A DNA stretch of 64,000 nt, from contig CAWENF010000003.1 in assembly GCA_963810275.1 (NCBI GenBank), positions 115,855-179,854 of the forward strand, written 5' to 3'. Every line of letters starts with the position of its first letter. The stretch's first letter is position 1. This stretch comes from an uncultured archaeon. GTDB taxonomy: Archaea; Thermoproteota; Bathyarchaeia; Bathyarchaeales; Bathycorpusculaceae. The notes beneath the pieces were generated by a model. The model saw only the letters and a program-made list of their open reading frames with translations. It had not been told where the DNA came from and made no database searches. A program made the translations under genes and the position numbers. Below, piece by piece: positions 29,084-45,013 of the stretch.

Positions 29084-29296
29084 GAGACTCAGTCCTAATT
29101 CATTTGGGAAGCTGCCGCCTTAAAAATGCTATCATTAATGGATAGGATTCGTAGCTGCTTTCCAAAAGGTTAGCAGGTGTTTTCTGCATTTTTAGACGAG
29201 TTCGCTTGGATAAAGCAGGCGGTTAACAGGGTTATGCGTAAATATTATATGCGTGCTTTTGCTTCTTCGGTTTGCATTAAGGGTCTGTGGCTTAAT

Positions 29297-30802
29297 TTGT
29301 CTAAAGACGGCACTCGCACCATTGAAGAGATTAATGATAAGATACGAAAAGGCGACGCTCAAGTTTTAACTGCTGAGGAAATGAAAAAACTAGTCGAAAG
29401 CAGCGGCGTAGAAGTCGCCTTCAAAGAAGTAGATGTAGTTACAACTGGCACTTTCGGCGCTATGTGTAGCAGTGGTGCACTTATCAACGTGGGGCACTCA
29501 GATCCACCCATCAAAATCGACCGCGCATGGCTAAACGACGTCGCCGTCACACACCCCGGAGCGGCAGTCGACCTTTTTATCGGTGCCACCAACATGACCG
29601 ATAAGCACAACTATGACTACGGTGGAGGACACGTCATATCTGACCTTGTGTCAGGCAAAGAAGTTGATTTCCGAGCTACAGGGGTAGGCACAGACTGCTA
29701 TCCACGAACCAGCGTCCACACAACCATAACCAAAGACGACCTCAACCAGTTCCAACTCATCAACTTCCGCAACTGCTACCAAAAATACAACTGTGCAGTA
29801 AACGGGAGTGACGAAATCATCTATACGTATATGAGCAAGCTTTTGCCCCGATTCCGCAACGCTACTTTTAGTGGCGCAGGCGAACTCAATCCCTTAATGA
29901 ACGACCCAGACTATGAAACCATTGGGCTGGGCACACGCATTTTTCTTGGAGGCGGACAAGGCTACATCATCGGGGAAGGAACGCAGCACAGCCCCCAAAG
30001 CCAAGATGGAACACTAATGGTGAAAGGCGACGCTAAGAAGATGTCCTCCGAGTTTTTGCAAGGAGCCAGCTTCACTAAGTACGGCACCAGCATGTATGTC
30101 GGACTGGGCATCCCAATCCCTATCCTAAACATGGGAATAGCAAGGAAAACAGCGATTCGAGACAGCGAAATCTTCACCAACATCGTCGACTACAGTGTTC
30201 CCAGACGGGACCGACCTAAATACGGGAAAGTCAGCTATCAAGAACTCAAATCAGGCACCATAAACGTCAACGGAAAAAAAGTCCGCGTTAGCTCACTGAG
30301 CAGCATTAAAATGGCGAAACAAGTCTCCAAAACCCTCAAACAATGGATTGAAGAAGGTAAATTCACCCTTACAGCACCCATCGAGCGGCTCCCCACCAAC
30401 ACCACATTCAAACCAATGCGACAAACCGAGGAAATCCCGTTCGTCGTCAGTGTCATGCATGCCGCCGTCACCTGCACCGAAAACGAGGAAATCCGAGCCA
30501 TCGCAGAACGAATAGTCACCAAATCTGTCAACCACATTGTCGTCATAGATGATGTAGGCAAAATCCGAGGCATCGTCACCTCGTGGGACATCACCCGAGC
30601 CATGGCGGAAGGCAAAAAAGCACTCGCTGACATTGAATCCAAAAACGTGGTGACAGCCAAACCTGATGAGCCATTGGAAATCGCGTCTAAACGAATGGCA
30701 CAGCACAGCATTTCCGCCCTGCCTGTTATAGATATAGAAAAGAAGGTTCTCGGAATCATCACATCTGAAGACGTGTCTAGACTATTGGGGAGAGGAAACT
30801 AA
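29297..30802 (+). CDS. L-aspartate semialdehyde sulfurtransferase (DUF39 + CBS; MA1821-like homocysteine synthase)
   Basis: RTIEEIN.KI, VDVVTTGTFGAMCSSG and LNPLMNDP motifs; two C-terminal CBS domains; TTG start at 29297 preferred. Confidence 0.9.
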   Translation: MSKDGTRTIEEINDKIRKGDAQVLTAEEMKKLVESSGVEVAFKEVDVVTTGTFGAMCSSGALINVGHSDPPIKIDRAWLNDVAVTHPGAAVDLFIGATNMTDKHNYDYGGGHVISDLVSGKEVDFRATGVGTDCYPRTSVHTTITKDDLNQFQLINFRNCYQKYNCAVNGSDEIIYTYMSKLLPRFRNATFSGAGELNPLMNDPDYETIGLGTRIFLGGGQGYIIGEGTQHSPQSQDGTLMVKGDAKKMSSEFLQGASFTKYGTSMYVGLGIPIPILNMGIARKTAIRDSEIFTNIVDYSVPRRDRPKYGKVSYQELKSGTINVNGKKVRVSSLSSIKMAKQVSKTLKQWIEEGKFTLTAPIERLPTNTTFKPMRQTEEIPFVVSVMHAAVTCTENEEIRAIAERIVTKSVNHIVVIDDVGKIRGIVTSWDITRAMAEGKKALADIESKNVVTAKPDEPLEIASKRMAQHSISALPVIDIEKKVLGIITSEDVSRLLGRGN

Positions 30803-31233
30803 TGGGACGACTATATCTCCGCATGAATGAAGAGCAGGTTTCTGAGCCTATAGCCTCGCAAATCATCATCGAGTATAAGGTGCCCATGGCGATTCTTTCA
30901 GCGCATATTAACTCAAAGGGCGGCGAAATTCTCGTTGAAGTGCCAGATGAAATCGAGGACAAAATCGTGGAGGCTTTTCGCAGCCGAGGGGTCATCGTTA
31001 CCGTTCCCAAACTCATCGAAGTGGACAGCGAAAAATGCTTTAGCTGCGGCAGCTGTGTCGCGCTTTGCCCAGTGGAAGCGATCAAAACAACCCGAGACGG
31101 CTCCGTCGAATTTGATAAAGAACGCTGTTTGGGAAACACATGTGGGATTTGTGTTGATGCCTGCCCAGCGCGGGCCATCAAGTCGCTTAAGCCCAACGGC
31201 AATGGGAATGCTAACAGGGACAAAAAAAGTTGA
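30802..31233 (+). CDS. NIL-domain ferredoxin (MA1822-like)
   Basis: NIL-like N-terminus; CFSCGSCVALCP and CGICVDACP. Confidence 0.88.
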   Translation: MGRLYLRMNEEQVSEPIASQIIIEYKVPMAILSAHINSKGGEILVEVPDEIEDKIVEAFRSRGVIVTVPKLIEVDSEKCFSCGSCVALCPVEAIKTTRDGSVEFDKERCLGNTCGICVDACPARAIKSLKPNGNGNANRDKKS

Positions 31234-31931
31234 ACCCCAAACTATTAAGAGAAGCGTTCACCCTAAAGGAAAGCCAATGTACCTTTGTTTCTGACAGCCC
31301 AGAAGCCCTCGAAGTCGCCAAACAATCCATCCATTGCAGCCGCCTTGACCTTGAACTCTACGTGCGAATGAACCCAAAATTCGAGCACACCCTCACGCCC
31401 GTAGATGTTCCTGAAAAGCCGCTTGTCGCCAAACTCATGGCTGAAGCAGCTGTTTTGGCTAAGGTAGGTCCTATGGCGGCAGTGGCGGGCGCTATAGCGG
31501 ACATAGCTGTAGCGGATATGCTCAGAATTGGATGCAAGGTGGCGGTGGTGGAGAACGGCGGCGAAATCATGGCACAAGCCAACCAGCCTGTGGATGTAGC
31601 AGTAGCTGCAGGGGAGGAGCCGCTTTCCAAATGCTTCGGTTTTAGATTAGCAGATTTTCCAATCGCTGTCGCCACTAGTTCCGGTAGGTTTAGCCACGCT
31701 TTCAGCTTCGGCGACGCAGAAGCAGCCATCGTCTTCGGCAAAAACGCATCTTTAGCGGATGCTGCGGCGACTGCGGTGGGTAACGAGGTGAAGGGCGAGG
31801 ACGTGCAGGAGGCGATTCAAGAGGGCATAAAAAGAGCCTTAAGTATTGAAGGAGTCGAGGGGGTAATGATCATCTACCGCGGCGAAGTAGGCACCGCAGG
31901 CAAAATTCCCAAACTTATCAAACTCAGCTAA
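31230..31931 (+). CDS. UPF0280 ApbE-like protein (MA1715-like sulfide assimilation)
   Basis: VGPMAAVAG, ENGGEI, ATSSG..SFG and ADAAATA motifs. Confidence 0.88.
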   Translation: MNPKLLREAFTLKESQCTFVSDSPEALEVAKQSIHCSRLDLELYVRMNPKFEHTLTPVDVPEKPLVAKLMAEAAVLAKVGPMAAVAGAIADIAVADMLRIGCKVAVVENGGEIMAQANQPVDVAVAAGEEPLSKCFGFRLADFPIAVATSSGRFSHAFSFGDAEAAIVFGKNASLADAAATAVGNEVKGEDVQEAIQEGIKRALSIEGVEGVMIIYRGEVGTAGKIPKLIKLS

Positions 31932-32120
31932 GCTGCCCGCTTTGCTCTGCGCCGGTTCTGAGACGCGCCAACCCATTTCCCTAATAGCAGCGTATTTTGT
32001 GTTGTCTTGCCTCAGTAACTACGAACGTAGGTCTCATTAACGGATTCCCTAACTCAAACGCCAAACTACAGCGCGGATTAGCATGGAGGAAATCTGAATC
32101 CTTCCAATCTGCGGACAGCT
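31931..32120 (-). ncRNA. Candidate ~190-nt structured non-coding RNA
   Basis: 10-bp terminal stem, several nested helices with G-U pairs on the minus strand, TATA-like ATTAAATA 29 nt upstream. Confidence 0.5.
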
Positions 32121-32218
32121 ACATAGCCCGAATCGACAAACTATTTAATGAAGGAAAAAACAACATCAATAGAGGCACACAAATACCTTGCCGCTGAGTA
32201 GTACCGCAAACTTGACTC

Positions 32219-32234
32219 CGAAACGCTTATATTT
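32219..32234 (+). promoter_or_regulatory. BRE/TATA promoter of the leader-lysC-aro operon
   Basis: CGAAACG-CTTATATT; predicted TSS ~32256. Confidence 0.65.
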
Positions 32235-32266
32235 TTTGTAAGGTGACTCATTTGCGGGTCGAAGCA

Positions 32267-32353
32267 ATGATATACACATTAGTAATAAGCAGTAACGCAC
32301 TGCAATTTGGCAGCTTCGACTATGGCTTTTATTATTTCGGTTATTTTCCTTAA
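32267..32353 (+). CDS. Phe/Tyr-rich leader peptide (putative attenuator uORF)
   Basis: MIYTLVISSNALQFGSFDYGFYYFGYFP*; 9 of the last 15 codons are Phe/Tyr; followed by hairpin 32354-32391. Confidence 0.8.
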   Translation: MIYTLVISSNALQFGSFDYGFYYFGYFP

Positions 32354-32409
32354 GCCCAGAACGGTCAAAATTTTTGAGTAAAGTTCTGGGCAACAAACGG
32401 GTGTAGCAA

Positions 32410-33654
32410 ATGACGAAACAACTCTCTAAACGTAAACTAGTAGTAAAATTCGGCGGCTCCAGCTTATCTGACCACGAACGCATGCTAAAAGCAGTTATGG
32501 CAGTTGTAAAAGAAGCACAGAAGGGCACGAAACTCGCCGTGGTAGTATCAGCTATGGGCAAAACAACCGATGTGCTTCTAGCCACGGCTAAGAGCACTTC
32601 AAATGGTAAACTCCAAAAACATGAACTCGATGAAATCCTTTCCATGGGCGAACGCACTAGCATGCGCATCTTCGCCACCGCCTTACGCAACAACGGCGTG
32701 GACGCCTGCTACTTCGACCCTATTGATAATAAGTGGCCAATCATCAGTGACGAGGCTTTCCAAAATGCCAATCCAGACCTTAAAGAATGTAGCAAGAAAA
32801 TCAAAGAATACATCCAGCCCTTGGTTGAGGCAGGCACTATACCGGTAATTGCGGGTTTCGTCGGGAAAACTGAGGATGGAAAAATCACCACAATGGGCAG
32901 GGGCGGAAGCGACACCACCGCCTTCATTTTAGCAGAAGGCATAGGTGCAGACCAAGTGGTGCTTGTAACTGACGCAGATGGCATCATGAGCAGTGACCCT
33001 AAAATCATAAAGAACCCGAGGCTTCTGCAAACAATCGACGTTAACACGCTGGTGGGTTTGGCTGATTCAGGAGCGAAATTTATTCACGCCAAGGCGCTTA
33101 AATACAAACCTAAAGCTATCGATGTGAAAGTCATCAGCAACAAGCACGGCGACTTAAGCAAAGACGGCACAATCATCACCGGCGCGTTGGCGTGGGAATT
33201 GAATGCGGAAATAGCTAATCCCTCTTCCGTAGCGGAGATAACCGTTATTGGTAAAGGCTTGTCAGCAAATCCTCAAGTCATAACCGAAATTGTTCAGAAA
33301 GTAAAGCAGAACAGCAGATTACTGGGCATGTCAATGAACACTAACTCCATAATACTCTACGTGCCCCAAACCGACATCATCGACGAACTCTTCGACCAGA
33401 TTCACCAAATCACAATAAACAACAAAGAAACCATCGCCATGGCAGTCAAAAAAGACTTAGTGCTCATCAAAACCAGCGGTGTTGGCTTAGAGGAAACCCA
33501 GGGTCTCATCGGCAAAATCAGCGAGGACCTGCGCGTAAAGGGGATAAACATCAGCGGCATCTTAACCATCACATCCAGTATTTTGCTATTTGTTGATTGG
33601 AATGAGAAAGAGAAAGCGCTAAAGTTAATTAAAAACGCTCTCAGAAATCATTAG
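32410..33654 (+). CDS. lysC: Aspartate kinase
   Basis: VVKFGGSS, VVVSAMGKTTD and MGRGGSDTTA motifs; ACT-like C-terminus. Confidence 0.93.
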   Translation: MTKQLSKRKLVVKFGGSSLSDHERMLKAVMAVVKEAQKGTKLAVVVSAMGKTTDVLLATAKSTSNGKLQKHELDEILSMGERTSMRIFATALRNNGVDACYFDPIDNKWPIISDEAFQNANPDLKECSKKIKEYIQPLVEAGTIPVIAGFVGKTEDGKITTMGRGGSDTTAFILAEGIGADQVVLVTDADGIMSSDPKIIKNPRLLQTIDVNTLVGLADSGAKFIHAKALKYKPKAIDVKVISNKHGDLSKDGTIITGALAWELNAEIANPSSVAEITVIGKGLSANPQVITEIVQKVKQNSRLLGMSMNTNSIILYVPQTDIIDELFDQIHQITINNKETIAMAVKKDLVLIKTSGVGLEETQGLIGKISEDLRVKGINISGILTITSSILLFVDWNEKEKALKLIKNALRNH

Positions 33655-33655
33655 G

Positions 33656-34459
33656 GTGGATGCACAAATGAACGAGGGAAAAATTCGCAGACTTAAAAAA
33701 ATCATTCAGAAAGATAACCGCACCGTAATTGTACCCATGGATCACGGTGTCACCATTGGACCCGTCACTGGCATAGTGAACATGCAAAAAATCACCGACC
33801 AACTAGTCAAAGGAAAAGCCGACGCAATCCTTGTGCATAAAGGCATTGCACGCCGCATCGACGTTGACGGAGCAGGCTTAATCGTTATGCTTTCAGGTGC
33901 ATCCAGCCTCGGACCAAACCCCAACGGCAAAGTTCAAGTCTGCAGCGTTCAAGAAGCAGTTCGGTTGGGCGCGGAGGCAGTTTCTGTTCACATTAACGTA
34001 GGCGCCCAAGATGAAGACAAGATGCTCTGCACTTTGGGTAAGGTGGCAGAGGAATGCGAAGTCTTCGGCATGCCACTTCTGGCTATGATGTACCCGAGGG
34101 GACCCCGAATCACCAACGAACACGCTCCCGAAGTCGTGGCTCACGCAGCCCGCATTGGTGCAGAACTCGGAGCAGATATAATAAAAACCAACTTCACAGG
34201 CAACATAGAAACATTCAAGACAGTAGTAGAAAGCTGTCCCGCCCCAGTAGTCATCGCAGGCGGACCGAAATGCAAAAGCGTCGAAGAAATCTTGCAAACC
34301 ACACATGACGCAATCCAAGCAGGCGCTGCGGGGCTTAGCATCGGCAGAAACATTTTCCAATGCGAAACGCCCACTAATATTACAAGGGCGCTTGCCGCCA
34401 TCGTTCATGAGAAAGCCACCGTGGCGGATGCGCAAAAGTTTTTGGGTGAAAAACTTTGA
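33656..34459 (+). CDS. aroA': 2-amino-3,7-dideoxy-D-threo-hept-6-ulosonate (ADH) synthase
   Basis: VPMDHG, MMYPRG, ELGADIIKT and AGGPK motifs; adjacent to DHQ synthase II. Confidence 0.9.
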   Translation: MDAQMNEGKIRRLKKIIQKDNRTVIVPMDHGVTIGPVTGIVNMQKITDQLVKGKADAILVHKGIARRIDVDGAGLIVMLSGASSLGPNPNGKVQVCSVQEAVRLGAEAVSVHINVGAQDEDKMLCTLGKVAEECEVFGMPLLAMMYPRGPRITNEHAPEVVAHAARIGAELGADIIKTNFTGNIETFKTVVESCPAPVVIAGGPKCKSVEEILQTTHDAIQAGAAGLSIGRNIFQCETPTNITRALAAIVHEKATVADAQKFLGEKL

Positions 34460-35478
34460 AGGAACTCTGGGTAGAAATATTAAAAGAAGACCAGAAAGGC
34501 TCAATGCAAGAGGCAGCTGCACAATTCAGCGACGCTGTTATCGAAGAGAACTCTGTTGTTTTTGTAGCAGCCGACGAACACGTAGCCCTATCGCCGCTTA
34601 CCAAAGAGACCCTTAACGAGCAAAACACAACTGAAAAAATCTTCCGCATAACCATAAGCGATAAAGAATCAGAGAACCTAACAGTTGAAGCTGCACAATT
34701 AGGCGCTAACTACATAATTATCGGATGCGCAAACTGGCGCGTCATCCCACTGGAAAACTTGATTGCCCGAATCAAGGGCAAAAGCAAACTCATCGCTGAA
34801 GTTGCCAGCGCTGAAGAAGCAAAAGTCGCAGTTGAAACCCTAGAATTGGGAACCGACGGCGTACTCCTCAGAACATCAAGCCCCGACGAGCTGATGAAAA
34901 CCGTTTCCATCGTCAAACCCGAAGCGCTCAAACTACAGATGGCAACAGCCAAAATCGTATCTTCCAAACCCATCGGCACAGGTGCACGCGTCTGCGTTGA
35001 CACATGCGACCTAATGACTCAAGGCGAAGGCATGCTGTCAGGCAGCCAAAGCGCCGGGCTCTTCCTAGTCGAAGCTGAAGTAAACGAAAATCCCTATGTC
35101 GCATCACGGCCTTTCCGCGTGAACGCAGGTTCATGCTCTATGTACACGTTAGGGAACCTGCAGACGACAAGGTACCTGCAAGAGTTCAAAGCAGGAGACG
35201 AAGTCATACTCGTTAACCGAGAAGGTAAAACCCGCAAAGCAAACGTGGGTCGCATAAAAATCGAAATCCGTCCCCTCATCCTAATCGAAGCCCAAGCAGA
35301 AGGCAAAATCATCAAGGTTATTCTGCAGAACGCTGAAACCATCCGCGTCGTTACCCCGTCAGGCTCTAAACCCGTTACTGACCTTAAAGCAGGTGACGAA
35401 GTCATCGTGCATTTAGCCGCCAAAGGCGGACGCCACTTCGGAATATCTGTGCCTGACGAAACGGTGATAGAGAAGTGA
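34456..35478 (+). CDS. aroB': 3-dehydroquinate synthase II
   Basis: IPLENLIA, RVCVDT, RPFRVNAG and LQNAETI motifs. Confidence 0.94.
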   Translation: MKELWVEILKEDQKGSMQEAAAQFSDAVIEENSVVFVAADEHVALSPLTKETLNEQNTTEKIFRITISDKESENLTVEAAQLGANYIIIGCANWRVIPLENLIARIKGKSKLIAEVASAEEAKVAVETLELGTDGVLLRTSSPDELMKTVSIVKPEALKLQMATAKIVSSKPIGTGARVCVDTCDLMTQGEGMLSGSQSAGLFLVEAEVNENPYVASRPFRVNAGSCSMYTLGNLQTTRYLQEFKAGDEVILVNREGKTRKANVGRIKIEIRPLILIEAQAEGKIIKVILQNAETIRVVTPSGSKPVTDLKAGDEVIVHLAAKGGRHFGISVPDETVIEK

Positions 35479-36158
35479 TTCCCCAAATCTGCGTCTCGAT
35501 TCTACCTAAAAACACAAACGAAGCATTAGAGTTAATTGTGAAAGCTGAAGCGGAAGGGGCAAACTTTGTTGAGGTACGCATGGACTGCCTAGAAGTAATA
35601 GGTGAACTTGCGAATTTACCTAAAAGCACAAGATGCCCTTTAATTGCTACTAACAAGCTCCCGGATGAAGGTGGCTTCTTTTCAGGTTCCGAAGCAGACC
35701 GTAAACAAATCTTACTTAACGCTGTTAAAAGCGGCTTCCAATATGTGGATGTAGACTTTTGCAGTCCTAACCCAGCGGAAGCAGTTGCATTGTTTAAATC
35801 TTCGGGCGCAAAGGTGGTGGTATCGTACCATAAACCGGACGGCACTCTGCCACATTACGCATTGGAGAAGGTACTAAAAAACCAGCTTGACTCCGGAGCA
35901 GATGTCTGCAAAATCATCACAACCGCCAAAAAAACCGAAGACAACCTGGTAGTTCTACGCTTCATCTCGGAAAACGCAGCAAAAACAAAACTAGTTTGCT
36001 TCTGTATGGGTGAAGCAGGCAAAACCTCAAGGCTGCTCTCACCAGTTTTCGGTGCATTCTTCACTTTCGCCGCGTTGTACACAGCCGCACAAACTGCACC
36101 GGGACAGATGAATATAAAAGAAATGTCCACTGCATACAGAATATTAGGGATAATTTGA
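35475..36158 (+). CDS. aroD: Type I 3-dehydroquinate dehydratase
   Basis: E.RMD, VSYH, GADVCKI, MGE.GKTSR and APGQ motifs. Confidence 0.92.
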   Translation: MIPQICVSILPKNTNEALELIVKAEAEGANFVEVRMDCLEVIGELANLPKSTRCPLIATNKLPDEGGFFSGSEADRKQILLNAVKSGFQYVDVDFCSPNPAEAVALFKSSGAKVVVSYHKPDGTLPHYALEKVLKNQLDSGADVCKIITTAKKTEDNLVVLRFISENAAKTKLVCFCMGEAGKTSRLLSPVFGAFFTFAALYTAAQTAPGQMNIKEMSTAYRILGII

Positions 36159-37015
36159 TGACGATTTCGGGCAAGACACGGGTATGTGGAGTTATAGGAG
36201 ATCCCATTGAGCACTCGCTTAGCCCCATCATGCATAACGCAGCGTTTGAAGCGATGGGACTAAACTACGTGTTTTTAGCGTTTAGGGTGAAGCCTTCCCG
36301 CGTAGCCGAAGCAGTAGACGGCATGCGAGCACTCAACATCCGTGGCTTAAACGTGACTATGCCTCATAAAAAGTTGGTTATGAAGAGCCTTGACCGCATC
36401 GACCTCGCCGCCCAGATAATTCAATCCGTAAACACAATCTTAAACCAGGGAAAACTGCTGTTTGGCTTCAACACTGACGGCGTCGGCGCAGTTAAAGCAC
36501 TCAAAGAAAACGGTGTTGGATTAAAGGGACATAAAGTGCTGCTTTTAGGTGCAGGCGGCGCTGCCAGAGCAATCGCTTATTTAGTAGCCAAAGAAGCAGA
36601 CGAACTCGCTGTGCTTAACCGAACAGCCAAACCCGCTCAGGAACTATCTAAGCTTCTGGAGAAGTCTGTGAACAAAAAAATCGCCTACGGCACCCTCTCC
36701 CAAGCCGACATAGAGCACAACCTACAGGACAGCGACATCTTAATCAACGCCACCTCTGTGGGAATGAAGCCGAAACCAACCGAAAGTCCCGTGCCCGCCG
36801 ATTTGCTGCGCAGAAACCTCGCGGTTATGGATATAGTCTACAACCCGCTGGAAACCCAACTCTTAAAAGACGCAAAAGAAGCAGGCGCACACGTAGTGAA
36901 CGGGGTGGAGATGCTGATTTATCAGGGCGCAGCATCCTTTGAAATCTGGACTGGCAAATCCGCGCCCGTTGAAGTTATGAGGAAGGCAGTGGTAACTCAC
37001 TTACAGAAGGTGTAA
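36155..37015 (+). CDS. aroE: Shikimate dehydrogenase
   Basis: HSLSPIMHN, NVTMPHK, NTDG and GAGGAARA motifs. Confidence 0.96.
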   Translation: MMTISGKTRVCGVIGDPIEHSLSPIMHNAAFEAMGLNYVFLAFRVKPSRVAEAVDGMRALNIRGLNVTMPHKKLVMKSLDRIDLAAQIIQSVNTILNQGKLLFGFNTDGVGAVKALKENGVGLKGHKVLLLGAGGAARAIAYLVAKEADELAVLNRTAKPAQELSKLLEKSVNKKIAYGTLSQADIEHNLQDSDILINATSVGMKPKPTESPVPADLLRRNLAVMDIVYNPLETQLLKDAKEAGAHVVNGVEMLIYQGAASFEIWTGKSAPVEVMRKAVVTHLQKV

Positions 37016-37019
37016 CAGG

Positions 37020-37889
37020 ATGGCGGGTGAAGCTGTGGCGGTGGCGCATGGCGCAGCAACAATCGTAAACGCTATAGCCTTGGGTAGGGGTGCAGCGTTC
37101 GGAGTTGACTTGTATACAAAAGCCGAAGTCAAACTAACAGGGGAATCAGGCGTTTTTGAAGTGGAAATCACTTCCGACCCCAACGAGAGCACTTTGCTAG
37201 TTGAACGTACTGTTGCCCGAGTTCTGGAACACTTCAAAGCCCAAGAACAATACGGTGCCAAAGTCAAAACCACCTCAAACATCCCAGCCGCCCGCGGACT
37301 CAAAAGCAGCAGTGTTGCCGCAAACGCAACAGCCCTTGCTACAATCGCCGCGCTGGAGAAGTCGCTGGACGACATTGAAATCGTCAGAATCGGCGTAGAA
37401 GCCGCATTTGACGCCAAATGCACAATCACAGGCGCCTTTGACGACGCATGCGCATCTTACTTCGGCGGAGCAGTCATAACCGACAACACACGTCGCCAGA
37501 TTCTCAAGCAGCTCAGGCTTCCAAAAAACCTCTCAGTGCTGTTTTGGGTACCCGCCCAGAAAGCATACACTATCAACTCTGACGTTGATCGCCTTCAGAC
37601 AGTTAAGCCACTGGTTGAGTTGGCGTTCGAGAAGGCAATGATGGGCAGCGTCTGGGATGCCCTAACACTCAACGGACTTGTTTACTCGGCGGCTTCGGGT
37701 CAGAACCCCGCCATCGCCATCGATGCACTACAGGCAGGCGCAGTCGCTGCTGGATTATGCGGTAAAGGACCCGCAGTTACCGCCGTCGTCCACTCCGACA
37801 CAGCCGACAAAGTCAAAGCTGCACTCCAAAACTACGAAGGCAACGTTATCGAAGCACAGCTTAACGGCGAAAAAGCCAAGGTGTTCTAA
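37020..37889 (+). CDS. aroK: Archaeal (GHMP) shikimate kinase
   Basis: GAATIVNAIA, GLKSSS and TGAFDDA motifs. Confidence 0.94.
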   Translation: MAGEAVAVAHGAATIVNAIALGRGAAFGVDLYTKAEVKLTGESGVFEVEITSDPNESTLLVERTVARVLEHFKAQEQYGAKVKTTSNIPAARGLKSSSVAANATALATIAALEKSLDDIEIVRIGVEAAFDAKCTITGAFDDACASYFGGAVITDNTRRQILKQLRLPKNLSVLFWVPAQKAYTINSDVDRLQTVKPLVELAFEKAMMGSVWDALTLNGLVYSAASGQNPAIAIDALQAGAVAAGLCGKGPAVTAVVHSDTADKVKAALQNYEGNVIEAQLNGEKAKVF

Positions 37890-37890
37890 A

Positions 37891-39186
37891 ATGACATCAG
37901 TAACCGTCAAAAAAACGGATTGCATCTCTGGCGAAGTGCAAGCTCCTGCCTCAAAGGCTTACACTCAACGCATGGTTATCGCGTCAGCCTTATCCAACGG
38001 AACCTCCAAAGTGGAGAAACCACTGTTTTCCAAAGACACCGAAGCCGCCCTACGCGCAGTAACGGGGTTGGGCGCCAAAGTTGAAGCGGGAGACGGACAA
38101 TGGACGATAACGGGAGTAGCCCAACTGGAAGCCCCCAGCGAACCCATTGATTGCGGCGAATCAGGAGCCACGCTAAGGTTTATAGTACCAGTCGCGGCTT
38201 TGGCAGACGGTGTCTCCACGCTGCTTTTCCATGGCTCAATTGCTCGTCGCCCCATAGAGCCCCTGCTAAACAGCCTCCATGACTTGAATGCAGAGGCATT
38301 TGTTGGCAAGCACTGTGAGGTGGATGCGGTGTTTGTGCAGGGCGGAGGCATTGCAGGTGGAAGAACCGAGATTGCTGGGGATGTTAGTTCACAGTTTATT
38401 TCTGGTTTGACGTTTGCGTGTCCCTTGGCAAAGGCGGATTCTGAGATTGTGCTTACGTCGCCATTAGAGTCGGCCGATTATGTGAAGATGACTCAGACAG
38501 TACTCAGCCAGCACGGCGTCAAAGTTGAAATTGAAGAAAGGCGTCTGCTAATTTCGGGAAATCAACGCTACAAACCCGCAGACGCAACTGTACCTGGAGA
38601 TTTCTCTTCAGCAGCTTTTCTCCTTGCAGCAGCTGCAGTCACTAAATCCAAAGTAAAAGTGGGCAACCTCGATTACGAGGCAGTGCAGGGCGACAAAGCC
38701 ATCGTGGAAATCCTAAAAGAAATGGGTGTAAAAGTTATGGTCACAAGCGACAGCATTGAAGTGGAAGGCACGGGTGAAAAGCTCAGGCACTTCGATATAG
38801 ACGCAAAAAATGTCCCTGACCTTGTCCCCGTACTTGCAGCCCTTGCATGCTACGCAGACGGCACCAGCCACATAACAGGCGCCAAACGGCTTCGCCTCAA
38901 AGAATCCGATCGACTCGCCTCAACGCACTCCGAACTCACCAAAATGGGCGCACAAATCACCATAACCGAAGACGGTTTAACCATCAAAGGCACCAAACTC
39001 CACAGCGCAGTCATAGACCCTCATAACGACCACCGCATAGCAATGGCAGCCGCCGTCGCCGCAATCGGAGCAAAAGGCGAAACCACAATAGAGCACGCAG
39101 AGTGTATCAGAAAGTCTTATCCGCAGTTCTTCCATCACTTAAAGCAATTAGGAGTTGAAGTGGTTGGCGGGAAACTCGATAGGTAA
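37891..39186 (+). CDS. aroA: EPSP synthase
   Basis: PASKAYTQR, SSQFISG, LRLKESDR and DHRIAMA motifs; ATG at 37891. Confidence 0.95.
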   Translation: MTSVTVKKTDCISGEVQAPASKAYTQRMVIASALSNGTSKVEKPLFSKDTEAALRAVTGLGAKVEAGDGQWTITGVAQLEAPSEPIDCGESGATLRFIVPVAALADGVSTLLFHGSIARRPIEPLLNSLHDLNAEAFVGKHCEVDAVFVQGGGIAGGRTEIAGDVSSQFISGLTFACPLAKADSEIVLTSPLESADYVKMTQTVLSQHGVKVEIEERRLLISGNQRYKPADATVPGDFSSAAFLLAAAAVTKSKVKVGNLDYEAVQGDKAIVEILKEMGVKVMVTSDSIEVEGTGEKLRHFDIDAKNVPDLVPVLAALACYADGTSHITGAKRLRLKESDRLASTHSELTKMGAQITITEDGLTIKGTKLHSAVIDPHNDHRIAMAAAVAAIGAKGETTIEHAECIRKSYPQFFHHLKQLGVEVVGGKLDR

Positions 39187-40267
39187 AGAATTCACTGTTA
39201 CAACGTTTGGGGAAAGCCATGGAAGAGTTGTCGGTGTAGTGGTTGACGGCTGCCCCGCAGGTTTGCCCTTAAAAAAAGAAGATTTCCAAGAAGAGCTGGA
39301 TAGGCGCATACCGAACCAGCCTAAAATCGTATCTGCCCGCGTGGAAAAGGACATGGCGCAGATTTTAAGCGGAGTCTTTAACGGCTACACGACGGGCGCA
39401 CCCATCACATTGATGGTGGAAAATAAGGAGACTCAGTCCAGCGACTACGACGCCGTCAAAAACACGCCCCGACCAGCCCACTCTGACTACCCTGCAAGCA
39501 TCCGCTATGGCGGGTTTAATGACCATCGAGGCGGCGGTCGCTTCTCAGGCCGCGTTACAGTCACATTAATCATGGCGGGGGTTGTCGCCAAGAAGCTGCT
39601 AGCAAGATACAACATGGACGTTCTTGCATACACTCAAGCTATCGGACCCGTTAAAAGCCACAAAGAGTTCCTCGCATCAGAAATTCGCAAGAACCGCAAC
39701 GCGGCAGCCACCCGTTGCCCCGACTTGGAGTGTGCAGAGAAGATGGAGGAAGCCATCGTTGCCGCAAAAGAAGCAGGCGACAGCCTCGGCGGAGTCGTAG
39801 AATGCGTTGCACTTAACATTCCTGCTGGTGTTGGTGAACCGCTGTTTGACGCTTTGGATGCGGATTTGGCGAAGGCACTGTTTTGTGTGTCTGCGGTGAA
39901 GGGCGTAGAGTTTGGCGCCGGCTTCAAAGCTGCCGAAATGTGTGGCTCGGAAAACAACGACGCTTTCCTTATGAAAGGTGGCAAGGTAGTGACCGCAACC
40001 GAGAACGCGGGCGGCATCTTAGGCGGTTTGTCAAGCGGCATGCCCATAGTCATCCGCGTCGCCATAAAACCCACACCCTCCATTGCGAAAGAGCAGAAAA
40101 CCGTGGATTTAACCTCTATGCAAGATACCTGCATAACCGTCAAAGGCCGCCATGACCCATGCATTGTACCAAAAGCGGTGCCAGCTATAGAAGCCGCAGT
40201 AGCAGTAACCTTAGTTGACCACTTAATTCGAGTGGGAGAAATCCCCAAAACCCTAAAGGTGTACTAA
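39164..40267 (+). CDS. aroC: Chorismate synthase
   Basis: FGESHG, RGGGRFSGR, KPTPSI and GRHDPC motifs. Confidence 0.97.
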   Translation: MAGNSIGKEFTVTTFGESHGRVVGVVVDGCPAGLPLKKEDFQEELDRRIPNQPKIVSARVEKDMAQILSGVFNGYTTGAPITLMVENKETQSSDYDAVKNTPRPAHSDYPASIRYGGFNDHRGGGRFSGRVTVTLIMAGVVAKKLLARYNMDVLAYTQAIGPVKSHKEFLASEIRKNRNAAATRCPDLECAEKMEEAIVAAKEAGDSLGGVVECVALNIPAGVGEPLFDALDADLAKALFCVSAVKGVEFGAGFKAAEMCGSENNDAFLMKGGKVVTATENAGGILGGLSSGMPIVIRVAIKPTPSIAKEQKTVDLTSMQDTCITVKGRHDPCIVPKAVPAIEAAVAVTLVDHLIRVGEIPKTLKVY

Positions 40268-40268
40268 A

Positions 40269-40529
40269 ATGAGCGAGTTAGATTCGTTACGTGAAAAAAT
40301 CGACGCAGTCGACGACCAAATCCTCCACGACTTCTTGCAACGTGTGAAAATTGCTCGCGCCATCGGCGAACTCAAGAGAAAAGAAGGCAGACCGGTGCAT
40401 GACATCCACCGTGAAACCGAAGTTTTCAAGCGCGCCAGAGAGCGGGCGGAGCTTTTGAAGCTTGACCCTGAAAGAATTGAGCGTATCTACCACGAAATAG
40501 TTAATATGTGCAGCACCGTTCAACAGTAA
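40269..40529 (+). CDS. Chorismate mutase (AroQ type II)
   Basis: LREKIDAVDDQIL..R..IG.LK pattern. Confidence 0.9.
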   Translation: MSELDSLREKIDAVDDQILHDFLQRVKIARAIGELKRKEGRPVHDIHRETEVFKRARERAELLKLDPERIERIYHEIVNMCSTVQQ

Positions 40530-40559
40530 CGTTATCTCTCAACGGGGAGATGTTCCCAG

Positions 40560-41639
40560 ATGCTATATGAAATAAACGAGAAAGCACTCAAACTTGAAAG
40601 TGAAGGTAAAAAAATCGTCCGATTAAATCTTGGCGATCCCGATATGGCTACTCCGCCTGAAATCGTGGAAGCCGCTTATGCTGCAATGAAAGCAGGCAAA
40701 ACCAAGTACAGCAGCAGCTATGGCGAGTTGAGGCTGCGGCAGAAAATCGCTGATATCCATGGTGTTAAGGCAGAAAACGTGGTTATTACACCGGGCTCGA
40801 AGTGGGCTATTTTTTCCACCATGTTTCTCACTCTTAAAAACGGCGGCAACATCATCATCCCAACTCCGTACTGGACCGCTTACGACTTGATTGCGAAGAG
40901 TTTTGGCGCAAAAGTAAAGTTGCTACCAACAAAGATGGAGGATGGCTGGAAAATTGACCCCGCCAAACTTGAGGAACTCATCGACAGCGAGACAAAAATG
41001 ATTCTTCTCAATAACCCAAACAACCCCACCAGCAAAGCCTTCGATGACGCAACACTTGACGCCGTCGTGGAAGTAGCGAAAAGGAAAAAAGTACCCATCC
41101 TTTCAGACGAGGTTTACGGCGCAATTGCCTTCAAAAAAGTCAAAAGCATACTTGACTACGGCGAACTTGACAACAACATCGTCAGCAACGGCTTCTCAAA
41201 AACCTTCACAATGACTGGCTGGCGTGTAGGCTACCTTGTCGCAGACAAAGCCCACATAGACAAAGTCACCAAACTCAACCAAATTACCTTCAACAACGTA
41301 CCCGTCTTCATACAGGAAGCAGCACTCAAAGGCTTAGAACTCCACGCCCAAATCGCAGCCAACATCAAAGCAAAATACAAAACCCGCGCAGACCTCGCAT
41401 CCAAGAAACTCAAAGAAGCAGGTTTCCAATTTACTGAACCAGATGCACCCTTCTACGTGTTCCCCAAAAAAACCGGCTTGGATGGTACCAAATTCACTTT
41501 GGATTTGCTCGACAGCGGCGTTGCAGTTGCTCCTGGCTCAAGCTTCGGTGACCATCCAGAGCACTTCCGCATCAGCTTAACCGCTCCAGACGACCAAATC
41601 GAGTGGGCGATGAATAAAATCTGCGAGGCGGCTCAATGA
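40560..41639 (+). CDS. PLP-dependent aminotransferase class I/II (likely aromatic)
   Basis: NNPNNPT, SDEVY and FSKTFTMTGWRVG motifs; operon context. Confidence 0.9.
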   Translation: MLYEINEKALKLESEGKKIVRLNLGDPDMATPPEIVEAAYAAMKAGKTKYSSSYGELRLRQKIADIHGVKAENVVITPGSKWAIFSTMFLTLKNGGNIIIPTPYWTAYDLIAKSFGAKVKLLPTKMEDGWKIDPAKLEELIDSETKMILLNNPNNPTSKAFDDATLDAVVEVAKRKKVPILSDEVYGAIAFKKVKSILDYGELDNNIVSNGFSKTFTMTGWRVGYLVADKAHIDKVTKLNQITFNNVPVFIQEAALKGLELHAQIAANIKAKYKTRADLASKKLKEAGFQFTEPDAPFYVFPKKTGLDGTKFTLDLLDSGVAVAPGSSFGDHPEHFRISLTAPDDQIEWAMNKICEAAQ

Positions 41640-42508
41640 GGACAGCCGTTCTTGGCGCAGGAAAAATGGGCGTTTGGTTTGCCCGTTTCTGCAAAGAGAA
41701 AGGCGACACCGTAGTTTTAGCTGACCGCAAGCCTGAAAAGCTGGCGAAGTTGAAGGACGAGTTGGGCGTCGAAGTTGCTGATTTCCCAGCCGCAGTCAAG
41801 GAGGCTGACCGAGTCCTTATCTGCGTATCCATATCCTCTTTTGAGGAAACCGTCAAGAAAATCGCTGACTCAGTCCATAAAGGACAGCCAGTTATGGATG
41901 TGTGCTCCATCAAGGAGTATCCAGTTCAAGTTATGCATGAGTACCTCAAGGATGCTTTGGTTTTGGGTACACACCCTGTGTTTGGTCCGGGCAGCAACGG
42001 CGTTGCGCATAAAGCCTACGTGCTAACTCCCACTATGCCTGAAGAAGAAACTTACGCATTACAATACCAAAAATGGCTCGAGAAAGAAGGAGCCAACGTC
42101 TTTGTCATGACCCCAGCCAAGCACGACGAGCTCATGTCCATCATTTTGGGCTTCGCGCACTTCGTGGGGTTAGCTGCCTGCGAAACCCTGCTTGAACAGC
42201 CCGGCTTCGTGGAATCCAAAAAACTCGCTGGAACGACATACCGCATGCTATTCACTCTTGCCGAAGCCGTAGCTATGGAAACCCCTGACTTGTACGCCAA
42301 TGTGCAGACCAAGCTGGCGGGTATGGATAAAATCGAGGAAAAATTCATCTCAAACGCCCAAGCTTGGGTGAACCTTATGAAACAAAAGGACTCTGCTGCC
42401 ATCATGCAACGCATGGACAAGCTCCGAGCTAAACTCGAGAAAGCCGACAAAGAATACGGTAAAAGCTACGAAGTAATGTACAAAATGTTACAGTCAACCG
42501 AGGAATAA
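41636..42508 (+). CDS. tyrA: Prephenate dehydrogenase
   Basis: GAGKMG, DVCSIK, HPVFGP and HDELMS motifs. Confidence 0.92.
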   Translation: MRTAVLGAGKMGVWFARFCKEKGDTVVLADRKPEKLAKLKDELGVEVADFPAAVKEADRVLICVSISSFEETVKKIADSVHKGQPVMDVCSIKEYPVQVMHEYLKDALVLGTHPVFGPGSNGVAHKAYVLTPTMPEEETYALQYQKWLEKEGANVFVMTPAKHDELMSIILGFAHFVGLAACETLLEQPGFVESKKLAGTTYRMLFTLAEAVAMETPDLYANVQTKLAGMDKIEEKFISNAQAWVNLMKQKDSAAIMQRMDKLRAKLEKADKEYGKSYEVMYKMLQSTEE

Positions 42509-44200: not shown

Positions 44201-45013
44201 TTAGATAACTCTGGGATAAGAGCCGAGTATTTTTACGAAGGTAGCGTACCTCTCCAGCCCTGCCAACGCTTCAACGCACCGTTTTTCTGTGCGGTGTCCT
44301 TCGAAGTCTACGTAAAAGTTGTATTGCCACGCTGTTGTCTTAGTTGGGCGGCTTTCGATGCGAGTTAGGTTGATGTTGCGACTGGCGAATTCGCCTATGG
44401 AGTTGTAGAGGCTGCCGGGAACGTGTTTTAGGCTGAATATGATGCTGGTTTTGTCGTCGCCTGTGGGTTCGGCGTCTTCGGTGCTGAGGACGAGGAAGCG
44501 GGTGTAGTTGGATGGGTTGTCGGCGATGTCTCGGGCGATGATTTTCATGCCGTAGAGATCGGCGGCTTTTTCGGATGCGATGGCGGCTGCCTTTAGGAGT
44601 TTGCGTTCTTTGATGAGTTTGACGCTGCCTGCGGTGTCGTAGGCTGGGATGACTTCCCAGGGTTGTTTTTGGAGGTAGTTGCGACACTGGCCAAGTGCCT
44701 GGGGATGGGAGTAAACGGTTCGGATGTCGACAATGTCAGCTTCGGGGTTGGCGATTAAGACGTGGGCGAGTTTGATGGCGACTTCCCCGCACACTTTGAG
44801 GTCGTAGCTGAGGAAGAGGTCGTAATTCTGGGTCACGCTGCCCTCAAGGCTGTTCTCAATCGGAACTACGCCATGCGGTGCAGCACCAGTTTTGACAGAT
44901 TCAAAGACGTGGCGAAAGTCTTCACAGGGAACCGCCTCCACTTTGCTGCCGAAAAACTTGAACACAGCCATCTCGCTGTAAGCGCCGCGCTCGCCTTGAT
45001 AGGTTACCTTCAT
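44201..45013 (-). CDS. pheA: Prephenate dehydratase
   Basis: PIENSLEG, SHPQALGQC, NYTRF and LTRIESRP motifs. Confidence 0.95.
   Translation of the reverse strand: MKVTYQGERGAYSEMAVFKFFGSKVEAVPCEDFRHVFESVKTGAAPHGVVPIENSLEGSVTQNYDLFLSYDLKVCGEVAIKLAHVLIANPEADIVDIRTVYSHPQALGQCRNYLQKQPWEVIPAYDTAGSVKLIKERKLLKAAAIASEKAADLYGMKIIARDIADNPSNYTRFLVLSTEDAEPTGDDKTSIIFSLKHVPGSLYNSIGEFASRNINLTRIESRPTKTTAWQYNFYVDFEGHRTEKRCVEALAGLERYATFVKILGSYPRVI

Follow-up and report, generated by a model that had tools for sequence, protein, structure and literature searches.

The window analyzed, a stretch of 64,000 nucleotides from an archaeon of the class Bathyarchaeia, harbors on its forward strand an operon for aromatic amino acid synthesis that is headed by a lysC-type aspartate kinase gene and preceded by a compact leader region (Table 1). 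A first-pass annotation had placed an aromatic amino acid operon downstream of this leader, and the Pfam domains agree with that assignment. The gene order was found to be amino acid kinase, DeoC-type aldolase, DHQ synthase II, DHQase I, shikimate dehydrogenase, GHMP kinase (shikimate kinase), EPSP synthase, chorismate synthase, CM_2, class I/II aminotransferase, and prephenate dehydrogenase, with a GATase gene behind. The leader contains a short upstream open reading frame (uORF), the tail of which is dominated by Phe and Tyr codons, and two inverted repeats, P1 and P2. The same annotation had reported a BRE/TATA element, a uORF with five Phe and four Tyr residues in its last 15 codons, a perfect 8-bp repeat around the start codon, and a 9-bp stem behind the stop that encloses a T5 tract; all of these proved exact.

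Table 1. Features of the lysC-aro leader and operon (positions refer to the window)
Feature	Position	Strand	Basis or remark
BRE/TATA-like promoter, CGAAACGCTTATATTT	32219..32234	+	Read in sequence
P1, 5' arm, GTCGAAGC	32258..32265	+	Forms the very 5' end of the predicted mRNA and is separated from the uORF ATG by 1 nt
Leader ORF (uORF), 28 codons plus TAA (32351-32353), peptide MIYTLVISSNALQFGSFDYGFYYFGYFP	32267..32353	+	Translation; frame conserved in relatives
Aromatic codon cluster F14 to F27, 5 Phe and 4 Tyr	32306..32347	+	Translation
P1, 3' arm, GCTTCGAC	32313..32320	+	Inside codons Ser16-Phe17-Asp18
P2 hairpin, 9-bp stem GCCCAGAAC (32354-32362)/GTTCTGGGC (32383-32391), 20-nt A/T-rich loop	32354..32391	+	Directly after the uORF stop
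T5 tract in the P2 loop	32371..32375	+	T5-T7 in most relatives
Shine-Dalgarno-like GGGTG of lysC, 7 nt after P2	32399..32403	+	GGGTG/GGGGG conserved in the genus
lysC-type aspartate kinase, operon gene 1, start ATG at 32410	32410..33654	+	Pfam AA_kinase, E 3.6e-49
Archaeal-type aromatic amino acid synthesis genes, aldolase to TyrA	33656..42508	+	Pfam

The F/Y enrichment of the leader exceeds chance. Among the 20,980 short ATG-ORFs of the genome, this uORF is the only one that reaches 8 F/Y in a 12-residue window, and under the same automated uORF rule a score of 5 was obtained for 2 of 232 control upstream regions and a score of 6 for none of them. All Tyr codons of the leader tail are TAT, a codon that represents 35% of the Tyr codons genome-wide, and leader tails were found to favor this rarer Tyr codon. 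A search of the peptide against Pfam and NCBIfam retrieved no family at E values of up to 10, and the comparison of the leader with Rfam returned only three chance-level matches, far under the gathering scores.

The usual archaeal spacing between the TATA element and the site of initiation places the predicted transcript start at ~32257. The uORF would then have a 5' untranslated region (UTR) of ~10 nt, in which a good Shine-Dalgarno sequence is absent. In the genus loci with sufficient upstream sequence, the promoter CCGAAACGCTTATATTTT is conserved, and the distance from the TATA element to the 5' arm of P1 is a constant ~30 nt. The hairpin and promoter motifs each occur a single time in the genome, as judged from a motif search. 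The codons GTG at 32243 and TTG at 32252 are in frame with the uORF, and the latter had been proposed as a possible start in the first-pass annotation. Use of either codon is unlikely because the spacer preceding the ATG varies by 0 to 7 nt among relatives and the transcript start is predicted to lie downstream of both, and both were rejected on these grounds. The variation of this spacer contrasts with the triplet-stepped distance from the ATG to P1: the 5' arm is followed in 35 of 36 loci by a first ATG that lies 42, 45, or 48 nt from the 3' arm.

The arrangement of uORF, P1, and P2 upstream of the lysC-aro operon was present in all of the first 27 orthologous loci and in 56 of 57 further distinct leaders of the genus; one genus leader, L170, is out of frame. 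Most of the indels that fall in the uORF region when the genus leaders are aligned have lengths divisible by three. In the class Bathyarchaeia, 74 of 106 usable loci possess a uORF of this architecture that is rich in F/Y(/W), a count that combines automatic annotation with cases recognized by eye, and the automated annotation alone identified an F/Y-rich uORF in 68 of 86 loci. Families f26 and f35 (32 loci) are without an F/Y uORF, and all 11 loci from three families that belong to other classes of Thermoproteota carry one. Orthologous leaders, the comparison of which had been suggested in the first-pass annotation, were thus found to retain an open F/Y-rich frame despite sequence variation. 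T-richness alone is insufficient to account for this frame because it stays open even though the N-terminal half of the peptide varies freely and distant families differ in the whole nucleotide sequence. Judging from these sequence data, the uORF appears to be translated.

P1 and P2 are conserved as plus-strand RNA helices. Both were recovered by RNAalifold, and the stem positions were paired in 92.2% of the cells, compared to 23 to 49% when the partner was slid. The core pairs of P1 are either invariant or changed to G.U, and compensatory variants of P2 exist in other genera and families. P1-like helices, in which the uORF start region or early codons are paired with aromatic codons, were identified in three other groups. 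The hairpin begins between -3 and +2 nt from the uORF stop in 63 of 68 loci, and 57 of the 68 pass a rule that additionally requires a fold of ≤-15 kcal/mol, as compared to 109 of 1500 control short ORFs. At least two of the last four uORF codons are aromatic in 64 of the 68 loci. The distance from the hairpin end to the lysC start has a median of 18 nt and does not exceed 21 nt in 64 of the 68.

The Shine-Dalgarno sequence of lysC is located outside the P2 stem, with the gap between them measuring 0 to 9 nt in relatives. In the minimum-energy fold of the window, the F/Y tract is paired with the lysC start region, a pairing referred to as "P3." Its probability ranged from 0.04 to 0.67 across 24 genus loci, and its mean was 0.38, versus 0.32 with shuffled start regions; the pairing fell in the top tenth in 4 of 26 genus loci and was no better than shuffled in 22 of the 26. 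For the lysC start region, an accessibility of 0.36 was predicted; this is an ordinary value, close to the median of 0.39 among 235 control genes and at their 38th percentile. On the basis of these figures, we do not regard masking of the lysC start by the F/Y tract as a selected feature. Modelled ribosome footprints lifted lysC accessibility on average from 0.43 to 0.52. In one metatranscriptome run, two contigs of 151 nt fell within lysC, and no contig matched the leader.

We lean toward the reading that the leader peptide is a cis-acting sensor of the Phe- and Tyr-tRNA supply that is read out by P1 and P2, probably in the form of translational attenuation. The sensor part of this reading, namely, slow ribosomes on hungry Phe and Tyr codons, is well supported. 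The 28-codon peptide encoded in the 5' leader of the lysC-aro mRNA would be translated and would act in cis, and scarcity of Phe or Tyr would hold ribosomes up at the nine aromatic codons in the tail, with the two conserved helices reporting the position of the ribosome. P1 is predicted to join the 5' end of the mRNA and the uORF initiation region to the Ser-Phe-Asp codons that open the aromatic cluster. Because the start region would be paired with codons of the cluster, a ribosome on the cluster would leave the uORF start free, and an empty cluster would permit P1 to close it. P2 spans the region from the uORF stop to 18 to 19 nt before the lysC ATG, and since it begins at the stop, any ribosome occupying the final four codons (two are aromatic in the window) would have to melt it. 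Long occupancy of the cluster would presumably result in more expression of lysC and the downstream operon, and the output is most likely lysC translation initiation or mRNA fate and not a bacterial terminator/antiterminator switch. Of the interpretation given in the first-pass annotation, which saw attenuation-like control by ribosomes stalling on Phe and Tyr codons, the F/Y frame and both helices were confirmed as conserved features, and the regulation and its output step remain inference.

The same sensor might also cause premature transcription termination, either at the oligo-T tract of the loop or at a hairpin followed by a U-run, and possibly with the participation of FttA/aCPSF1, which could take the role of Rho in archaea. 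This output is rather unlikely, despite several observations with which it is consistent. The T columns of the P2 loop are at least 90% conserved in the genus alignment and the remaining loop is variable; runs of T≥5 have a density of 7.3 per kb in the 60 nt 3' of genes but of 1.3 per kb on coding sense strands in this genome, and for T≥6 the two densities are 3.6 and 0.34 per kb; and a U3-U6 run follows the hairpin in some other families, immediately 5' of the Shine-Dalgarno sequence. However, three or more U directly after the predicted hairpin are present in 7 of 68 loci, and in the window P2 is followed by AACAAACGGG, which bears out the earlier statement that no U-tract lies 3' of the hairpin. 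Three genus leaders have T3 only or no T-run. Since the loop T-tract is transcribed ahead of the 3' arm, P2 is unable to act on it, and no conserved antiterminator or alternative partner was found for either P2 arm, with P1 and P2 being the only helices recovered. Furthermore, simple coupling models would predict that starvation increases termination, an effect of the wrong sign. Another way of tying the output to starvation would be a hungry-codon frameshift on the U-rich tract, which would carry ribosomes past the stop and through P2 to termination beside the lysC start, so that lysC translation is coupled to starvation. In the window, the -1 frame is indeed open from the aromatic tract to a TAG at 32404-32406, 3 nt before the lysC ATG, and it is open in 18 of 26 genus loci. 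These 18 loci are not independent because they are close kin with a conserved P2, and outside the genus the frame is open in 4 of 42 loci, making frameshifting the hardest of the alternatives to credit.

Other explanations dispense with tRNA sensing. The uORF and hairpins may be constitutive elements that serve mRNA stability, a fixed translation brake, or the synthesis of a small functional peptide. The conserved C-terminal peptide could in principle be the product itself, and a Shine-Dalgarno sequence that is not sequestered by the hairpin fits this proposal, but the enriched codons match the end products of the operon across families with different nucleotide sequences, what is conserved is composition and position and not a peptide motif, with the N-terminal half being variable, and the peptide has no Pfam or NCBIfam match, so that a constitutive role is improbable. 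The conserved tail, which in the genus often has a Pro before the stop, as is the case in the window, is also compatible with a TnaC-like nascent arrest peptide that senses free Phe or Tyr in the ribosome tunnel and stalls at the stop codon. Against this, the last residues vary by group (FP, FN, FE, FK, FF, GP, SF, and others), and aromatic richness is the sole trait common to the families, with no motif that has fixed critical residues; arrest peptides, moreover, do not require many cognate codons. We regard such a peptide as highly unlikely, and the same applies to the idea that the inverted repeats are DNA operators or protein-binding RNA elements with an incidental open frame. Both repeats are palindromic as DNA, and TTCGAA is present in both P1 arms, yet the one-sided stem changes are G.U-compatible on the plus strand, which a DNA palindrome does not predict. 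In addition, the frame and the stop position are conserved, and distant families retain the ORF and hairpin with different sequences.

Leader-peptide attenuation is a textbook bacterial mechanism, and text searches of the accessible literature retrieved no archaeal leader-peptide attenuator. The leader described here shares with the bacterial attenuators pheL-pheA, pheM-pheST, trpL, and hisL a short ORF rich in end-product codons directly upstream of a biosynthetic operon, conserved flanking RNA helices, and the logic of hungry-codon sensing. It differs from them in its archaeal host, in having two helices with no terminator/antiterminator triad (1:2, 2:3, 3:4) found, in a hairpin that abuts the stop and has no trailing U-tract in the window, in its mixed Phe/Tyr (sometimes Trp) codons, and in the ~10-nt predicted 5' UTR without a Shine-Dalgarno sequence. 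In the translational attenuation of ermC, cat, and cmlA, an antibiotic serves as the signal, and the stem of the hairpin contains the Shine-Dalgarno sequence. As in those leaders, a stall near the ORF end would melt a hairpin that adjoins the start region of the regulated gene, and the distances between hairpin and stop, the position of the aromatic codons, and the distance between hairpin and lysC place the stall site as in erm/cat-type systems; here, however, the Shine-Dalgarno sequence is 7 nt beyond the stem, and the presumed signal is tRNA charging. A study on mycobacteria (Canestrari et al., bioRxiv 10.1101/834739) describes polycysteine leaderless short ORFs on which stalled ribosomes alter mRNA structure and control translation of the 3' gene; the stalled ribosome prevents formation of a duplex in which the ribosome-binding site downstream would be sequestered. 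Both systems place a sensory short ORF with many cognate codons near the 5' end, ahead of an operon for the pathway concerned, and they differ in that no sequestration beyond the base-composition level was predicted here. TnaC, an arrest peptide acting with Rho-dependent termination (PMC8429421), is similar in that a ribosome at the ORF end decides the fate of the downstream operon, whereas the present leaders have many cognate codons and no peptide motif common to families.

In this genome, the leader element precedes the lysC-aro operon only, as judged from motif and ORF scans and from the trpE and pheA regions. An enrichment scan of the 20,980 short ORFs revealed no second leader peptide, and a scan for an enriched uORF with hairpin and downstream ORF gave no second candidate; both scans are crude and would miss leaders with two cognate codons only. 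No cognate-rich uORF was seen upstream of trpE or of the gene ahead of pheA.

The proposal that Thermoproteota, namely, Bathyarchaeia together with three or more families from other classes, possess their own ribosome-mediated amino acid attenuation, without a terminator/antiterminator switch, is one on which we are evenly divided. If it is true, archaeal ribosomes serve as amino acid sensors, and leader-peptide sensing is either older than the divergence of bacteria and archaea or has evolved independently, with another effector. Conservation of the candidate extends through an entire class, most of it uncultured, and beyond, and its natural variation suffices to define the parts. It may provide a system for the study of translation feedback on archaeal gene expression, including any role of FttA/aCPSF1, and it offers a searchable signature, in which a uORF of cognate codons has a hairpin at the stop codon and the next start follows at a fixed distance. 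The leader is also carried by Candidatus Bathyarchaeum tardum, where it reads MNSHSTTTLTNSSMFYSFSYFFYN (L025/L164); this archaeon is presumably available as an enrichment culture, and the question is therefore experimentally accessible.

All elements that the first-pass annotation had described in the leader were located in the sequence (see the table), and its claim of an aromatic operon downstream was borne out in gene content by Pfam matches to an amino acid kinase, a DeoC-type aldolase, dehydroquinate synthase II, dehydroquinase I, shikimate dehydrogenase, a GHMP-type kinase, EPSP synthase, chorismate synthase, chorismate mutase, an aminotransferase, and prephenate dehydrogenase. A glutamine amidotransferase gene lies 3' of the prephenate dehydrogenase gene. 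The genome assembly comprises 2.26 Mb in 28 contigs, with a G+C content of 45%. The upstream ORF (uORF) carries 5 Phe and 4 Tyr residues within its last 15 codons, and its predicted transcript start, judged from the TATA position, would leave a 5' UTR of about 10 nt. An Rfam search of the leader region returned no family, only three matches at chance level, and the leader peptide matched no model in Pfam or NCBIfam.

Elements of the leader ahead of the lysC-aro operon (P1 and P2, predicted helices)
Element	Position	Strand	Sequence	Basis
BRE/TATA-like element	32219-32234	+	CGAAACGCTTATATTT	Sequence
uORF, ATG to TAA (stop 32351-32353), 28 codons	32267-32353	+	MIYTLVISSNALQFGSFDYGFYYFGYFP	Sequence, translation
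P1 arms, inverted repeat	32258-32265/32313-32320	+	GTCGAAGC/GCTTCGAC	Sequence
P2 arms, 20-nt loop between	32354-32362/32383-32391	+	GCCCAGAAC/GTTCTGGGC	Sequence
T5 tract inside P2 loop	32371-32375	+		Sequence
GGGTG ahead of lysC ATG (32410)	32399-32403	+		Sequence

Orthologs of the lysC-type kinase were identified in 23 of the 24 other genomes of the genus searched, at 72 to 85% identity, the sole exception being a 65%-complete genome. A comparison with relatives had been proposed in the first-pass annotation, and it revealed a Phe/Tyr (F/Y)-rich uORF of 24 to 29 codons at all 27 loci inspected, namely, the window, the 23 genus orthologs, and three loci belonging to two further families of the order. 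The frame was then found intact in 56 of 57 further distinct genus leaders from named records, a set that overlaps the first one since some records belong to the same species. Related genomes, here and in the other sets, are not independent samples. A 37%-identical kinase paralog situated behind a different gene (three loci) has no F/Y-rich uORF. L170 (positions 453-604) is the only genus leader in which the uORF ATG is out of frame, owing to a 2-nt gap; its kinase match also appears interrupted. As this record is a long-read metagenome assembly, the break may be an assembly indel, or it may reflect real decay of the element.

The window uORF is the only one among the 20,980 short ATG-ORFs of its genome with 8 F/Y within 12 residues, and it ranks 12th for enrichment in any single residue; the hairpin motif and the promoter motif each occur once in the genome. 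For wider surveys, an automated rule considered uORFs of 8 to 32 codons ending at most 140 nt from the gene and scored F/Y/W in the last 13 residues. Because this rule picks the most aromatic ORF of each region, and hence carries a selection bias, the rate in control upstream regions of the same genome is reported: 2 of 232 had a score of 5, and none of the 232 reached 6. Across the class, an ortholog at an E value of ≤1e-90 was present in 96 of 301 genomes; 80 upstream regions were retrieved, giving 107 loci in all, one of which lacks upstream sequence. Automatic annotation was possible for 86 of the 107, with a score of at least 5 in 68 and at least 6 in 66. Six further loci (L070, L072, L083, L088, L095, and L105), outside the length or start-codon filters, were recognized by eye as being of the same kind. 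An F/Y(/W)-rich uORF is thus found in 74 of the 106 usable loci and in all sampled families except two, f26 and f35, which account for all 32 usable loci without it.

Such loci include L085, L089, L092 to L094, L097 to L101, L106, and L108 in genus g78 of f35, and L050, L051, L054, L056 to L058, L074, L075, L077, and L078 in f26. These two families have other elements 45 to 130 nt upstream of the kinase, with near-invariant nucleotides that include third codon positions: ATGGGTGGTCATCTTTACTGGCAT, read MGGHLYWH..., in 12 of 12 g78 loci, and ATGGGTGAYCRTCTTTTCGGTGATGGCGTTTAC, read MGDxLFGDGVY, in most of 10 f26 loci. The kinase open frames are longer in these lineages (about 450 to 500 aa), and the elements might act as a structured RNA or encode either an arrest peptide or a portion of an N-terminal extension. 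Beyond the class, 401 genomes drawn from the phylum contributed 20 loci of other classes. Families f58, f62, and f47 possess an F/Y-rich uORF at each of their 11 loci (e.g., MASEGSRKKVFGFFYGFYFYFYFGP); a hairpin begins at the stop codon in all five from f58 and f62 and in the majority of those from f47. Weak cases were seen in two families, and seven of the 20 loci, from five families, have no F/Y uORF; these seven may be other kinase paralogs.

Comparative evidence points to translation of the uORF. Its N-terminal 14 to 16 codons vary almost freely among genus leaders, and the frame nonetheless stays open; most gaps that the genus alignment shows in the uORF region have a length divisible by three. 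When the start was taken frame-blind, as the first ATG beyond the 5' arm of P1, it lay 42, 45, or 48 nt from the 3' arm at 35 of the 36 family loci; the remaining one is a false hit of the search pattern and has an intact ORF. In contrast, the untranslated spacer ahead of the ATG measures 0, 1, 2, 3, 4, or 7 nt. In the genus alignment, P2 directly follows the stop codon or shares one base with it in every case. Tyr codons in leader tails are 68 TAT versus 49 TAC in the genus and 188 versus 89 overall; the TAT share in long ORFs of the genome is lower, at 35%. Shine-Dalgarno sequences of the uORF are weak or absent in most loci. In one public metatranscriptome run, two 151-nt contigs fall inside lysC and none covers the leader.

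The leader geometry is largely fixed over the 68 annotated loci. At least two of the last four sense codons are aromatic in 64, and in 63 a stable hairpin is predicted to begin at -3 to +2 nt relative to the stop codon end. The gap between stop and lysC start spans 46 to 72 nt, with fold energies from -7.6 to -35.4 kcal/mol (median near -19), and the hairpin ends a median of 18 nt upstream of the start codon (≤21 nt in 64 of 68). A common hairpin rule including a threshold of ≤-15 kcal/mol was satisfied by 57 of the 68 leaders versus 109 of 1500 random short ORFs.

The RNA structures are predictions throughout. RNAalifold on 24 genus leaders returned exactly P1 (7 bp) and P2 (9 bp), the stem cells showing nine one-sided changes, all to G.U, one compensatory change, and two broken pairs. 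This bias towards G.U argues for a plus-strand RNA helix rather than a DNA palindrome. In an alignment of 54 sequences (the window and 53 of the 57 leaders, the near-identical L118, L143, L155, and L169 being left out), 92.2% of 1078 cells pair, versus 23 to 49% when the 3' partner is slid by 1 to 3 columns. Stem sequences are nearly constant in the genus, leaving little covariation: its score was matched by 1 of 500 shuffles, and the count of pairs changed on both sides was equalled by 97 of 500. Between genera and families, P2 exhibits compensatory changes such as GCCCAGGCG/CGTCTGGGC and GCTCAG/CTGAGC. The window leader folds at -44.2 kcal/mol (z = -2.55), an energy equalled by 2 of 200 shuffles. 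P1-like helices of unrelated sequence are predicted in other groups: in f37, part of the 5' UTR is paired with codons for Ala-Ala-Phe; in f30, the uORF's own Shine-Dalgarno sequence GAAGGAGUC with GACUUCUUC (Asp-Phe-Phe); and in three small f1 genera, uORF codons 3 to 6 with Ser-Gly-Tyr-Trp.

The comparisons support well a sensor that would consist of the translated leader, on which ribosomes are slowed at Phe/Tyr and, in some lineages, also Trp codons. An amino acid-sensing leader is, overall, highly probable; the two readings that dispense with amino acid sensing are jointly improbable, and an arrest peptide is very unlikely. An output through translation or mRNA fate is mildly favored. With less confidence than for the sensor, this may take the form of an occupancy switch, which has the right sign, raises no timing problem, and agrees with every conserved distance. 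A ribosome on the aromatic cluster would hold P1 open, so that the uORF start stays available, and one on the last uORF codons would melt the putatively inhibitory P2, which borders the lysC ribosome-binding site on its 5' side; prolonged occupancy would then favor lysC translation or mRNA survival. Modelled ribosome footprints raise lysC accessibility from 0.43 to at most 0.52, with a peak when the A site is 3 to 4 codons before the stop; for lysC itself, a predicted value of 0.36 is unremarkable next to the median of 0.39 among 235 control genes. The aromatic codons might mask the lysC start, but this does not look like a selected feature. Pairing between the start region and these U-rich codons is present in the window fold, with probabilities of 0.04 to 0.67 over 24 genus loci, but it is compositional (0.38 versus 0.32 with shuffled start regions), and just 4 of 26 loci stand out.

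Were the sensing leader instead to act by premature transcription termination, the T-tract in the P2 loop, at least 90% conserved in the genus alignment, would be a candidate signal: in this genome, runs of at least five T occur at 7.3 per kb after genes versus 1.3 in coding sense strands, and runs of at least six at 3.6 versus 0.34. However, the tract is located 5' of the P2 3' arm, and the window has no U-tract 3' of P2, as the first-pass annotation had observed. Moreover, three or more U follow the hairpin in only 7 of 68 loci, and a search for an antiterminator found none; an output by termination is unlikely. Frameshift bypass of the stop is barely credible. In the window, the -1 frame relative to the uORF contains no stop between the aromatic tract and a TAG at 32404-32406, past P2 and 3 nt before the lysC ATG; 18 of 26 genus loci share this feature, compared with 4 of 42 elsewhere.

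The sensor would work like that of bacterial leader-peptide attenuators, whereas their helix triad and hairpin-plus-U terminator are both missing here. In geometry, the leader comes closer to translational attenuation and to the polycysteine short ORFs of mycobacteria, in which stalled ribosomes are reported to block a structure sequestering the ribosome-binding site downstream (10.1101/834739). A limited full-text literature search found no archaeal leader-peptide attenuator.

Over the whole genome, runs of at least five T are 2.5 times rarer than those of A on coding sense strands and are enriched 5- to 10-fold within 60 nt downstream of stop codons, an oligo-T pattern as expected if it served as a termination signal in this archaeon. 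The prephenate dehydratase gene pheA (PDT family) is nearby on the minus strand (44201-46533), behind a 507-aa ORF that is itself directly preceded by a dehydrogenase-like coding sequence; no aromatic-rich uORF was seen ahead of the 507-aa ORF, nor a Trp-rich one before trpE of the trp operon on contig C2. Upstream of the leader and on the same strand as the operon, 29177-31931 encodes a homocysteine-biosynthesis protein (HcyBio and CBS domains), a NIL-domain ferredoxin, and a 233-aa ORF without Pfam match. The intergenic sequence separating these genes from the aro promoter (31932-32218) contains short ORFs only. A minus-strand ORF of 175 aa (32166-32693) overlaps the leader and the lysC start; this frame appears fortuitous, given that its translation is rich in Ser/Arg/Leu/Cys and that a conserved gene occupies the other strand. 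For EPSP synthase, the longest frame (37678-39186) has a TTG start and overlaps the preceding kinase gene by about 210 nt. Its Pfam match starts only at residue 78, and translation probably begins close to where the kinase gene ends.
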